Shown here: in pieces, positions 26,603 to 40,060 of the stretch | Layout of the letters: every line of letters starts with the position of its first letter | How positions within the stretch are numbered: the first letter of the stretch is position 1 | NCBI RefSeq assembly: GCF_050920415.1 | Contig: NZ_CP169309.1 | Origin: Escherichia coli | GTDB taxonomy: Bacteria; Pseudomonadota; Gammaproteobacteria; Enterobacterales; Enterobacteriaceae | DNA: 64,000 bases | Reading direction: 5' to 3' (one strand) | The notes under the pieces: model-generated | The model's database searches: none | Told to the model about the DNA's origin: nothing | Seen by the model: only the letters and a program-made list of their open reading frames with translations | Translations under genes and position numbers: made by a program

Positions 26603-27099
26603 ACCTAATATCCTTATATCCAGAAGTGGAGAGGTGCAAGATAAATCAAAACACCATAATTACTGTTTGCAGAATAATTCCTTTCTGCCGGTCCGAAATG
26701 TGATCGTGGAGTCAATTCTGACGATGATCTGAAATAAGAATAACGTCTGAACGGGTATAAGAAAATGCTTAAATCATCAAGTTTATATATTTTTACATTT
26801 CATTGATGAAATCAATGTAACTGCAATGAATTTTAATGATGATGCTTTTTGTATCTTGTTGATATTAATAGGGGGATTTGAATTCATGATGAAGCAATGA
26901 TTTTTTAAAACGTTTTTTCATTTTTGCGATAAGGCTCTCAGTATACGTGTTCTGTTAATTAATGAGCACGGTGATAATTAATGGCGAAATGAATGACGCT
27001 CATTTTCCACATCTTTGAATTGCGGTTATTACACCATTTCAAAAGCTCAACGCCAGGTAATGTGGCCAATTGACTGGTTAAAAAGAAGACGTTCCGTAT

Positions 27100-27398
27100 G
27101 AGTACAAAACACAACAAGGATTTCCAGGCTAATCTTATGGATTAATCTGCTGTGTACTCGATGATTTGTCTGACAAATAAGCCTTTCTCTATGTCTTTTC
27201 CCGCTAAATTTATGCACGTTCTCACTGTAATTCTGCGATGTGATATTGCTCTCCTATGGAGAATTAATTTCTCGCTAAAACTATGTCAACACAGTTACTT
27301 ATCTTTTAGTTAAAAGGTAATGCTTTGTTTTCCGATTAAATTAACGAGAGTTATTCGTTTTTGCCCTACACAAAACGACACTAAAGCTGGAGAGAACC
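27100..27398 (+). promoter_or_regulatory. araFGH promoter/regulatory region (AraC/CRP-dependent), boundaries approximate
   Basis: Long AT-rich intergenic segment upstream of araF; regulator sites known from K-12, not individually mapped here. Confidence 0.35.
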
Positions 27399-28388
27399 AT
27401 GCACAAATTTACTAAAGCCCTGGCAGCCATTGGTCTGGCAGCCGTTATGTCACAATCCGCTATGGCGGAGAACCTGAAGCTCGGTTTCCTGGTGAAGCAA
27501 CCGGAAGAGCCGTGGTTCCAGACCGAATGGAAGTTTGCCGATAAAGCCGGGAAGGATTTAGGGTTTGAAGTTATTAAGATTGCCGTGCCGGATGGCGAAA
27601 AAACATTGAACGCGATCGACAGCCTGGCTGCCAGTGGCGCGAAAGGTTTCGTTATTTGTACTCCGGACCCGAAACTCGGCTCTGCCATCGTGGCGAAAGC
27701 GCGTGGCTACGATATGAAAGTCATTGCCGTGGATGACCAGTTTGTTAACGCCAAAGGCAAGCCAATGGATACCGTTCCGCTGGTGATGATGGCAGCGACC
27801 AAAATTGGCGAACGTCAGGGCCAGGAACTGTATAAAGAGATGCAGAAACGTGGCTGGGATGTCAAAGAAAGCGCGGTGATGGCGATTACCGCCAACGAAC
27901 TGGATACGGCTCGTCGCCGTACTACGGGTTCTATGGATGCGCTGAAAGCTGCAGGATTCCCGGAAAAACAAATTTATCAGGTACCTACCAAATCTAACGA
28001 CATCCCGGGGGCATTTGACGCTGCCAACTCAATGCTGGTTCAACATCCGGAAGTTAAACATTGGCTGATCGTCGGTATGAACGACAGCACCGTGCTGGGC
28101 GGCGTACGCGCGACGGAAGGTCAGGGCTTTAAAGCGGCCGATATTATCGGTATCGGTATTAACGGTGTGGATGCGGTGAGCGAACTGTCTAAGGCACAGG
28201 CAACCGGCTTCTACGGATCACTGCTGCCAAGCCCGGATGTACATGGTTATAAGTCCAGCGAAATGCTTTACAACTGGGTCGCAAAAGGTGTCGAACCGAC
28301 CAAATTCACCGAAGTTACCGACGTGGTGCTGATCACGCGTGACAACTTTAAAGAAGAACTGGAGAAAAAAGGTTTAGGCGGTAAGTAA
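27399..28388 (+). CDS. araF: L-arabinose ABC transporter periplasmic binding protein
   Basis: 329 aa with signal peptide MHKFTKALAAIGLAAVMSQSAMA. Confidence 0.9.
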   Translation: MHKFTKALAAIGLAAVMSQSAMAENLKLGFLVKQPEEPWFQTEWKFADKAGKDLGFEVIKIAVPDGEKTLNAIDSLAASGAKGFVICTPDPKLGSAIVAKARGYDMKVIAVDDQFVNAKGKPMDTVPLVMMAATKIGERQGQELYKEMQKRGWDVKESAVMAITANELDTARRRTTGSMDALKAAGFPEKQIYQVPTKSNDIPGAFDAANSMLVQHPEVKHWLIVGMNDSTVLGGVRATEGQGFKAADIIGIGINGVDAVSELSKAQATGFYGSLLPSPDVHGYKSSEMLYNWVAKGVEPTKFTEVTDVVLITRDNFKEELEKKGLGGK

Positions 28389-29983: not shown

Positions 29984-33339
<3,356 letters not shown>

Positions 33340-33345
33340 GTGCGG

Positions 33346-33774
33346 TTAATCTCCCGTAAGTGGAACTAACAGCACATCGACCTCACTTGAGGCAATCACT
33401 CTTTTCGCCGAGCAGGATGCTCGCGAAAAGAAACTGTGATTGTGATTACCGCAAATCACCAAATCGAAATGATGTTTGCGACAAACCTCCAGAATATGTT
33501 CGCTTAACTCACCGTAGGCAATAAACGTCTCGTCAACGGGATACCCCGCATCCTGAATTAACTTATCAAGAAAGCTTTGCGTTTCTTCCTGCATCACGCT
33601 GCGTAAATCTTCAAGCATCGGCGCGGCTAATTGATTGTACATTTCCGGGTCGGAAGCGAGAGTAATTAAACTGATGTGTCCCTTTACTGGCCTGGTGATA
33701 GATACCGCTTTTGCTAGCAGTTGCTGACTTTCCGGTGTAACCGCAACGGCGACAAGAATATTGCTATAGCTCAT
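33346..33774 (-). CDS. uspC: universal stress protein C
   Basis: 142-aa Usp-fold ORF, divergent from flhDC. Confidence 0.85.
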   Translation of the reverse strand: MSYSNILVAVAVTPESQQLLAKAVSITRPVKGHISLITLASDPEMYNQLAAPMLEDLRSVMQEETQSFLDKLIQDAGYPVDETFIAYGELSEHILEVCRKHHFDLVICGNHNHSFFSRASCSAKRVIASSEVDVLLVPLTGD

Positions 33775-34555
33775 AACCTGTTCCTTATTCTGTGAACTTC
33801 AGGTGACATTAAAGCTTTACTCCTAATGGAGAATCGACGCAATCCCAACTCAGTCAAACAGGTAAATATTAGTGTGATTATTAGTAAATACAATTAATCA
33901 ATGACGCCCAGCAATCATATAATTTCAATTGTTATTATAAGGAAAAAATGTACTAATTCCCCTTATTAAACAAATGGGTAATATATATAAAACATTTTGT
34001 TAACATTAAGTGGGTTGTTGCCTGTCTTTGCCTTAAATCAGTTTATTGTGTTGTAAGTGCCTGTTTGTAAATAGATTAACTGATTTTGCATTTGACCAAT
34101 TATTTATAGCAGATGATTATTTACGGTGAGTTATTTTAACTGTGCGAAACATCTCATTTCGATTATTACGGTTTCACTTTTGCTTACCATCGGTGTGAAA
34201 AACTTTTTAACAGATTGAAATACACCCAAAACAAAAGTATGACTTATACATTTATGTTAAGTAATTGAGTATTTTATGTGATCTGCATCACACATTATTG
34301 AAAATCGCAGTACCCCTCCGTTGTATGTGCGTGTAGTGACGAGTACAGTTGCGTCGATTTAGGAAAAATCTTAGATAAGTGTAAAGTACCCCCTCTATTT
34401 GTAAGGACCTATTAAACCCAATAAGGTGGGGCTGTTTTATTGCAGCTTATCGCAACTATTCTAATGCTAATTACTTTTTACCGGGGCTTCCCGGCGACAT
34501 CACGGGGTGCGGTGATACCGCATAAAAATAAAGTTGGTTATTCTGGGTGGGAATA
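33775..34555 (+). promoter_or_regulatory. flhDC promoter and long 5' UTR; no insertion sequence present
   Basis: About 780-bp AT-rich non-coding region between divergent uspC and flhD; known hub for transcription factors and sRNA targeting. Confidence 0.7.
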
Positions 34556-34906
34556 ATGCATACCTCCGAGTTGCTGAAACACATTTATGACATCAACTTG
34601 TCATATTTACTACTTGCACAGCGTCTGATTGTTCAGGACAAAGCGTCCGCAATGTTTCGTCTCGGCATAAATGAAGAAATGGCGACAACGTTAGCGGCAC
34701 TGACTCTTCCGCAAATGGTTAAGCTGGCAGAAACCAATCAACTGGTTTGTCACTTTCGTTTTGACAGCCACCAGACGATTACTCAGTTGACGCAAGATTC
34801 CCGCGTTGACGATCTCCAGCAAATTCATACCGGCATCATGCTCTCAACACGCTTGCTGAATGATGTTAATCAGCCTGAAGAAGCGCTGCGCAAGAAAAGG
34901 GCGTGA
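34556..34906 (+). CDS. flhD: flagellar master regulator subunit FlhD
   Basis: 116 aa starting [19 protein letters not shown]. Confidence 0.9.
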
Positions 34907-34908
34907 TC

Positions 34909-35487
34909 ATGAGTGAAAAAAGCATTGTTCAGGAAGCGCGGGATATTCAGCTGGCAATGGAATTGATCACACTGGGCGCTCGTTTGCAGATGCTGGAAAG
35001 CGAAACACAGTTAAGTCGCGGACGCCTGATAAAACTCTATAAAGAACTGCGCGGAAGCCCACCGCCGAAAGGCATGCTGCCATTCTCAACCGACTGGTTT
35101 ATGACCTGGGAACAAAACGTTCATGCTTCGATGTTCTGTAACGCATGGCAGTTTTTACTGAAAACCGGCTTGTGTAATGGCGTCGATGCGGTAATCAAAG
35201 CCTACCGTTTATACCTTGAACAGTGCCCGCAAGCAGAAGAAGGACCGCTACTGGCATTAACCCGTGCCTGGACATTGGTACGGTTTGTTGAAAGTGGATT
35301 ACTGCAACTTTCCAGCTGCAACTGCTGCAGCGGCAATTTTATTACCCACGCTCACCAGCCTGTTGGCAGCTTTGCCTGCAGCTTATGTCAGCCGCCATCC
35401 CGGGCAGTAAAAAGACGTAAACTTTCCCAGAATCCTGCCGATATTATCCCACAACTGCTGGATGAACAGAGAGTACAGGCTGTTTAA
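34909..35487 (+). CDS. flhC: flagellar master regulator subunit FlhC (zinc-binding)
   Basis: 192 aa starting [10 protein letters not shown]; Cys cluster CNCCSGNF...CSLC. Confidence 0.9.
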
Positions 35488-35612
35488 CTGATACGGTGTG
35501 GCGAAACATTCCAGCAGCGGTAACGACGTACCGCTGCTTTTTTTGCCTCAATCGCGCGTTAACGTCTGACGACTGAACATCCTGTCATGGTCAACAGTGG
35601 AAGGATGATGTC

Positions 35613-36496
35613 GTGCTTATCTTATTAGGTTACCTGGTTGTTCTCGGTACAGTTTTCGGCGGTTATCTGATGACCGGTGGAAGCCTTGGAGCACTCTATC
35701 AACCCGCTGAACTGGTGATTATTGCCGGTGCAGGGATTGGGTCGTTTATCGTCGGCAATAATGGCAAAGCGATTAAAGGCACGCTGAAGGCGCTGCCGTT
35801 ACTATTTCGTCGCTCCAAATATACCAAAGCAATGTATATGGATCTGCTGGCTCTGCTTTATCGGTTGATGGCGAAATCGCGGCAGATGGGGATGTTTTCG
35901 CTGGAACGCGATATTGAAAATCCCCGTGAGAGCGAGATCTTCGCCAGCTACCCACGCATCCTTGCGGATAGCGTCATGCTTGATTTTATCGTCGATTATC
36001 TGCGCCTGATTATCAGCGGTCACATGAATACCTTCGAAATTGAAGCCCTGATGGATGAAGAGATTGAGACGCACGAAAGCGAAGCAGAAGTCCCGGCGAA
36101 CAGTCTGGCATTGGTCGGGGACTCACTTCCGGCGTTTGGTATTGTCGCGGCTGTGATGGGGGTCGTTCACGCGTTAGGTTCAGCCGATCGTCCTGCCGCC
36201 GAGCTGGGGGCGCTTATCGCACATGCGATGGTGGGGACTTTCCTCGGTATTTTATTGGCTTACGGATTTATTTCCCCATTAGCGAGTGTTTTACGTCAGA
36301 AAAGCGCCGAAACCAGCAAAATGATGCAATGCGTCAAAGTCACACTGCTTTCTAATCTGAACGGTTACGCACCGCCTATCGCCGTTGAGTTTGGTCGCAA
36401 AACGCTCTATTCCAGCGAACGTCCGTCGTTTATTGAACTGGAAGAGCATGTGCGTGCGGTGAAAAATCCGCAACAACAGACGACAACCGAGGAAGC

Positions 36497-36500
<4 letters not shown>
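35613..36500 (+). CDS. motA: flagellar motor stator protein MotA
   Basis: 295 aa, GTG start, four TM helices. Confidence 0.9.
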
Positions 36501-39392
<2,892 letters not shown>

Positions 39393-39916: not shown

Positions 39917-40060
39917 TTATCCCGATTTCCTCAATTGCAATGAACCCGATGATCTGCGCATCGGGTTTTTTATGTCAATTTTGCGGTGGATGGCATCATT
40001 AATAAAGTTTCCCTCCTTCTTGCCGATAACGAGATCAACTTGTTTTCAGGAAGGTGCCTT

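Follow-up and report, generated by a model that had tools for sequence, protein, structure and literature searches.

The control region of flhDC, the flagellar master operon, raises the question of whether a region that is free of insertion sequences (IS) is thereby also an ordinary one. In the stretch of Escherichia coli DNA analysed here (the window, 64 kb), the region is IS-free, and its central 572 bp are probably a recombinational replacement by a rare divergent allele, with function predicted to be largely kept.

The window has the gene order otsBA-uspC / flhDC-motAB-cheA, which is the order of MG1655 in reverse. The region under study lies between the divergent uspC and flhD genes, upstream of an intact flhD-flhC pair, as is characteristic of the class I flagellar promoter (Table 1). 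An earlier note on this DNA described the region as long and uninterrupted, and its extent is indeed 781 bp, with limits at exactly 33775 and 34555 and no large deletion. The IS-free K-12 region, from which those of MG1655 and W3110 descend, is 779 bp (e.g., strain J53), and the alignment assigns this gap in length to two 1-bp insertions, both in the leader. The start of flhD (34556-34680) has 2 nucleotide differences compared to MG1655.

Table 1. Features of the flhDC locus in the window. Positions are those of the window; promoter positions are relative to the K-12-homologous start site; differences are counted against the sister allele.
Feature	Positions	Strand	Relative to start site	Differences	Remarks
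otsB-otsA		+			in the window, ahead of uspC
uspC (universal stress protein C)	33346-33774	-			142-aa ORF, divergent from flhD; annotated uspC in MG1655 and all fetched relatives
uspC-flhD intergenic region	33775-34555				781 bp; non-coding, complete, IS-free; collinear with IS-free K-12
Divergent block, putatively replaced	33903-34474		-453 to +119		572 bp; rare divergent allele
Block segment	33903-33987		-453 to -369	19	
Block segment	33999-34096		-357 to -260	22	
Promoter-like TTGACC-17 bp-GATTAT (candidate)	34092-34120	+			allele-specific, toward flhD; from consensus scan
50-bp island	34097-34146		-259 to -210	0	compared with R32_14_1F; covers published PapX-site position
Block segment	34147-34196		-209 to -160	11	
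73-bp island	34197-34269		-159 to -87	0	holds the K-12 IS1H and IS5 sites
Block segment	34270-34276		-86 to -80	3	immediately upstream of CRP site
cAMP-CRP site TGTGATCTGCATCACA	34277-34292	+	centred -71.5		read from the sequence; both half sites equal the consensus
Block segment	34311-34346		-45 to -10	4	window has the majority E. coli state at -26 and -10
Core sigma-70 promoter	34321-34349	+			-35 TTGTAT (34321-34326), 17-bp spacer, -10 TACAGT (34344-34349); placed by spacing to homologous start site
flhD 5' leader	34356-34555	+			200 nt here, 198 nt in K-12
RcsAB-box-like TAGGAAAAATCTTA	34360-34373	+	+5 to +18		same as K-12
GGA motifs	34362-34364, 34405-34407	+			both same as K-12
Block segment	34387-34437		+32 to +82	16	leader
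Leader hairpin (predicted)	stem arms ~34387-34393, ~34425-34437	+			variable arms
Single site	34474		+119	1	
flhD	34556-34906 (ATG at 34556)	+			116 aa, intact
flhC, motA, motB, cheA		+			after flhD; flhC, motA and motB are intact ORFs

The K-12 reference strains carry IS elements in this region, while the window does not. MG1655 aligns as two collinear pieces that abut at 34249-34256, the site of IS1H (768 bp, with the duplicated target CATTTATG on either side), and W3110 has a 1.19-kb IS5 at the TTAA of 34257-34260; the window is collinear with IS-free K-12 and has neither an IS remnant nor a large deletion. A BLAST search detected no IS1 or IS5 homology in the whole 64-kb window, and a repeat search of the region found no IS-like terminal repeats and a single 12-nt imperfect inverted repeat. 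Among ORFs of at least 40 aa, only a 40-aa frame (33771-33893) touches the region, and none extends past 33893. The earlier note, which had reported the region to be free of IS-like sequence and of transposase ORFs, is thus correct on both points. An Rfam scan of 33000-35800 (E <= 1) returned no match, and a consensus scan of the region returned no terminator. Relative to IS-free K-12 there is no insertion that would place the region among the IS-activated alleles. Because no IS element is present, the IS-mediated de-repression of flhDC described for the MG1655 and W3110 type is not applicable here.

The uninterrupted flhDC upstream region is the default wild-type state, and the absence of an IS is itself routine. 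The region is matched by 5,421 of 5,426 complete E. coli genomes and covered to at least 80% in one place by 5,271 of the 5,426. Extra 'places' that point to splits by large inserts number 118 only, a count that misses IS1-sized inserts since these are joined by the search tool. The sequence of the region, by contrast, is rare. Nearly all E. coli match the K-12 allele at 94.7-100% identity, whereas the divergent allele is carried by five of the 5,426 genomes: N96, MFDS1022581, 2017-02-2CC, 2013C-4282 and WL297. Identity over the region reaches 99% or more in N96 and MFDS1022581 only, is 97-98% in the other three carriers, and is at most 91.3% in non-carriers among the matches listed. In the core of the region (33880-34230), the five carriers are more than 94% identical, compared to 86.6% for the next best genome. 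The carriers originate from a Tibetan pig, from Korean food of animal origin and from humans in Vietnam, the USA and China, and all have one flanking haplotype. The window is an exact match to neither N96 nor MFDS1022581: it is 100% identical to N96 (NZ_CM169999.1) in the intergenic region and 99.9% in both 781-bp flanks, while MFDS1022581 (NZ_CP169399.1) is 100% identical in the flanks and 99.9% in the region (C vs A at 34286).

The divergence of the region was compared to that of its surroundings. Equal-length queries from the flanks (uspC/otsA and flhDC) are at least 95-99% identical in every matching genome, and 100-bp bins aligned to MG1655 are 92-100% identical through the genes and 77-81% at 33900-34100. 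Among typical strains, the mean pairwise difference is 3.4% in the intergenic region versus 5.3% at fourfold-degenerate sites of the flanking genes. When fixed differences are counted against seven typical strains, the window differs at 12 of 550 fourfold sites (2.2%), 51 of 777 positions of the whole region (6.6%) and 42 of 351 positions of the core (12.0%). The corresponding counts for L012, the representative of a sister species, are 109 of 550, 59 of 774 and 36 of 349, a pattern distinct from that of the window (Fisher P = 4e-10 for the region and 2e-11 for the core). Thus, the core is as far from typical E. coli as is the core of a species that is nine times more diverged at silent sites. 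The intergenic flhD region also has the highest share of fixed differences among 22 local features. A whole lineage that is simply divergent was considered and rejected, as the flanks diverge at 5-9% of fourfold sites, a usual value for E. coli; the existence of sister strains with the same flanks also contradicts it.

Two other intergenic regions of the window have raised divergence. The cheW-tar spacer (39917-40060; 144 bp), second to the flhD region in its share of fixed differences (9/144; 6.2%), shows up to 6.9% divergence within the lineage. The ftnB-araF intergenic region (26603-27398) has a patchy divergent allele, with 26 fixed differences in 793 positions relative to six typical strains, and at 27000-27499 the window and MFDS1022581 differ at 18-27 sites even from the closely related 2017-02-2CC, 2013C-4282, WL297 and Z0117EC0005. 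Mosaic intergenic alleles are, thus, not unique to flhDC.

Four sister strains (R32_14_1F, 2020CK-00188, AF39 and Z0117EC0005) combine the flanking haplotype of the window with the typical allele and delimit the divergent block. Compared to R32_14_1F, and also to 2020CK-00188 and AF39, the block differs at 72 of 571 aligned sites (12.6%; 87.4% identity), while the left flank (33000-33902) differs at 3 of 903 and the right flank (34475-37000) at 9 of 2526; the flanks together have 12 differences in 3,429 bp (99.6-99.7% identity), and the excess in the block is highly significant (Fisher P 5e-50). The left edge falls somewhere in 33697-33903 and the right edge in 34474-34516. Most of the changes reside in the distal zone from -160 to -453, where the core has a G+C content of 29% in both alleles. 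Two islands in the block are unchanged and are also nearly invariant among 12 E. coli strains: in the 50-bp island only MG1655 varies (at 34138), and in the 73-bp island only two B2-type strains vary (at 34203). The 50-bp island covers the reported position of a PapX site, with its centre about 220 bp ahead of the start site (PMC6246914).

The carriers themselves are mosaic. In 2013C-4282 and WL297, the sequence is typical at 33903-33987 and divergent from 33999 on, while in 2017-02-2CC the divergent block is accompanied by a further patch (33832-33889), which holds the L012 state at 7 of 9 changed sites, 4 of these being found in no typical strain of the panel. The sharp edges, the block-wise mosaics and the unchanged flanks argue for homologous recombination rather than substitution in place. 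This mechanism, and with it a divergent donor, we infer from a block whose boundaries, rarity and collinearity are directly observed. The exchange may have been an import into the carrier lineage or a reversion in the sister strains, both being compatible with the data.

A donor was sought among E. coli, other Escherichia and metagenomes. None was found in the 5,426 complete E. coli genomes outside the carrier lineage. An FlhD-based scan of one genome per species retrieved L012, L013, E. albertii and E. whittamii as its only Escherichia-like loci, all of them distant from the block; the E. coli type genome was not recognised among the retrieved loci, and neither were E. fergusonii, E. marmotae and E. 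ruysiae, unless L012 or L013 belongs to one of these three species. Identity to the block is 87-88% in the L012 clade, including two more loci retrieved by exact-protein look-up with the L012 FlhD (87.5-88.3%), and over the region it is about 68-76% in L013, E. albertii and E. whittamii. All of these are no nearer to the divergent allele than is typical E. coli. Two allele-specific 21-22-mers had zero matches in metagenome contigs. L012 (NZ_JAATUR010000018.1, strain SCPM-O-B-8794) and L013 (CP089930.1, strain E69) are both deposited as E. coli and lie far outside the species at the flhD locus, with divergence from E. coli of 24% and 29-31% at fourfold sites and of 7% and 9% in coding sequence, respectively; the two deposits probably represent different species of Escherichia, or cryptic clades.

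A neighbour-joining tree of 33832-34474 places the divergent allele on a deep branch of its own, the third besides those of the typical alleles and the L012 clade, in a three-way split of unsettled order. Such a tree could also be produced by an allele of old standing within E. coli, polymorphic for a long time and moved among the lineages of the species by recombination. The divergent allele does not nest in a foreign clade and joins the typical alleles in 103 of 300 bootstraps; a foreign donor was not found in the searches of species loci, the L012 clade and metagenome k-mers; and the region is known to vary sufficiently for use as a strain marker (PMC5007776). An allele present in 5 of 5,426 genomes (~0.1%) on a single flanking haplotype is, however, unlike a balanced polymorphism spread by recombination. 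The typical alleles all coalesce well inside the divergent one (monophyletic in 300 of 300 bootstraps), and the patch of 2017-02-2CC holds states that are otherwise found only in the L012 species. An old allele of the species is, thus, an improbable source of the block.

Accelerated local substitution, through relaxed constraint, positive selection or local hypermutation, would account for the block without any exchange. The 44 strictly fixed differences speak to this alternative in both directions. L012 has the typical E. coli state at 27 of these sites, and at 15 of the 27 the deeper outgroups have that state as well; these 15 states of the window are unique to the divergent allele and indicate a long branch, as change in place would generate. 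At 16 of the 44, by contrast, L012 has the state of the window, which is not expected of a block that arose in place. Local acceleration would also have to place 72 changes in 571 bp with sharp edges next to 12 in 3,429 bp of flank on the same haplotype. The mosaics of 2013C-4282/WL297 and 2017-02-2CC differ block by block, and intermediates with whole sub-blocks only, contrary to origin in place, are thus already seen. The unchanged 50- and 73-bp islands and the preserved leader hairpin argue against lost constraint, and the G+C content is unaltered; an origin in place is accordingly very improbable. An assembly or sequencing artefact is hardly credible, being refuted by five independent complete assemblies (from three Asian countries and the USA) that have the divergent allele, with consistent internal variation and collinear with the normal region. 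Replacement by recombination with a divergent donor, therefore, is the preferred explanation of the block.

The elements proximal to flhD are largely those of K-12. By alignment, the K-12 flhD start site (1,978,395) maps to 34356, a position based on homology. The -35 and -10 hexamers are the same as in K-12, and by homology the predicted leader corresponds to the ~198 nt of K-12. Binding of CAP has been reported at 72 nt upstream of the flhD start site (PMC9600491), and TGTGATCTGCATCACA is found at about this distance. The CRP site is unchanged compared to the sister allele and differs from MG1655 only at 34292. MG1655 is alone among 16 aligned sequences (12 E. coli and 4 outgroups) in having G at this position (TCACG vs the consensus TCACA).

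In the leader, the ribosome-binding region with the Shine-Dalgarno/ATG is the same as in K-12. The RcsAB-box and CsrA GGA-motif assignments are ones we take to be established. Single-sequence minimum-energy folding predicts, for each of the seven E. coli alleles folded, a hairpin that bears AAGGAC close to the tip, the stems differing among alleles. The 16 leader substitutions sit in both arms of this hairpin and appear compatible with structure-preserving substitution, as judged from the predicted folds. The hairpin was missing from a consensus RNA fold of the leader, as indels shift the stem arms out of register.

The distal part of the region is the part most changed. LrhA, OmpR, H-NS, IHF, Fur, YjjQ and MatA are listed as binding the flhDC region (PMC5493358); the distal repressor zone is 16% diverged from K-12, its G+C content still 29%. 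One candidate element of the divergent allele is the promoter-like TTGACC-17-GATTAT, which could act as an extra upstream promoter. Its TTGACC is created by four allele-specific substitutions at 34092-34096, where K-12 has GAAAGT. The consensus scan found 2 promoter-like sites versus 4.5 expected by chance, which is not significant; since such matches are no commoner here than in shuffled sequence, the site is considered a lead only.

Taken together, a mechanism can be proposed in which a sigma-70 promoter would fire at ~34356, activated by cAMP-CRP at -71.5, to transcribe a 200-nt leader predicted to bear Rcs, CsrA and small-RNA control elements. The AT-rich stretch upstream (29% G+C) would be the zone that receives activating IS insertions in K-12. 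The sequence from 33903 to 34474 would have entered by homologous recombination from an unsampled donor, whose locus may be about as old as the split of E. coli and its sister Escherichia species. The exchange would have spared both flanking genes and retained the elements common to all alleles. The operon is, thus, most likely still conditionally expressed and CRP-dependent, unlike the constitutive de-repression of IS-bearing K-12 stocks; conditional, non-constitutive expression is expected because IS-mediated de-repression is absent. The earlier note had further concluded that motility control here relies on the native regulatory inputs. This is well founded in that no IS is present and the conserved cis elements are intact, but needs qualification in that the central 572 bp are a rare, apparently replaced allele. 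The changes in the distal zone and the leader stem could make silencing or post-transcriptional control stronger or weaker. A bolder reading takes the block for a regulatory cassette acquired from an Escherichia lineage not yet described, a cassette that rewires the silencing of the flagellar master operon and leaves the coding sequence untouched; in one version, TTGACC-17-GATTAT would serve as an additional upstream promoter. This reading is conceivable but doubtful; if true, it would provide a natural, IS-independent route to altered motility control.

The locus provides a clean, sharply bounded replacement of regulatory DNA alone at a promoter that ranks among the most heavily regulated in E. 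coli. R32_14_1F, 2020CK-00188, AF39 and Z0117EC0005 are natural near-isogenic partners with the ordinary allele; carrier/sister pairs offer a comparison for how much sequence change is tolerated in the distal zone upstream of flhDC, and could test allelic replacement, besides IS insertion, as a tuner of natural motility. Since recombination can uncouple the marker from the strain background, caution is advised in SNP typing based on uspC-flhDC. Loss of motility often maps to coding mutations of flhDC rather than to the promoter. Among the loci compared, flhC is annotated as frameshifted in WP4-S18-ESBL-07 (locus L007, 9029-9605), an otherwise typical strain, and in two B2-type loci (L008 and L010) tap is a fragment next to tar.

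Compared to known systems, the region is closest in layout to that of IS-free K-12, with which it shares the uspC-flhD position, the promoter hexamers, the RcsAB-like box, the GGA motifs, the Shine-Dalgarno/ATG and the IS5 target TTAA, as well as a CRP site equally far from the start site. It differs from K-12 at 9.8% of sites in the region as a whole and at 16% of those in the core, in the two 1-bp leader insertions, and in the right half of the CRP site (TCACA here, TCACG in MG1655). In K-12, IS insertions between -96 and -476, selected on motility agar, are reported to stimulate flhDC, with an IS5 hot spot at -99 to -96 (PMC5100188), the site occupied in W3110. The IS-activated alleles of MG1655 (IS1H) and of W3110 and MC1000 (IS5) alter the same stretch, as the divergent -160 to -453 zone lies within -96 to -476. 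Unlike these alleles, the window has a base-for-base homologous replacement of the same length and G+C content, with no insertion. The same locus is strain-variable in other E. coli, where uspC-IS30-flhDC is a marker of wastewater-adapted strains and uspC-flhDC SNPs are used for source tracking (PMC5007776); by contrast, the window has no IS30, and its variation is a replaced block of 572 bp and not a scatter of SNPs.

The nearest parallel in kind is provided by the 'switched' intergenic regions, also termed horizontal regulatory transfer, in E. coli, credited to Oren et al. 2014 in the Piggy paper (PMC5890482). These are likewise divergent intergenic alleles between conserved flanking genes, discordant with the flanking haplotype. 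At flhDC, the block is 87.4% identical versus 99.6-99.7% for the flanks and the allele is incongruent with the flanking haplotype, a discordant distribution that points to recombination limited to regulatory DNA. The alleles here are still clearly homologous, whereas cases in the Piggy paper are described as without sequence similarity. The flhDC promoter is well studied, and, by sequence criteria, its divergent block fits a switched intergenic region, with the whole region (~90.5% identical) at the borderline of the below-90% cut-off given there.
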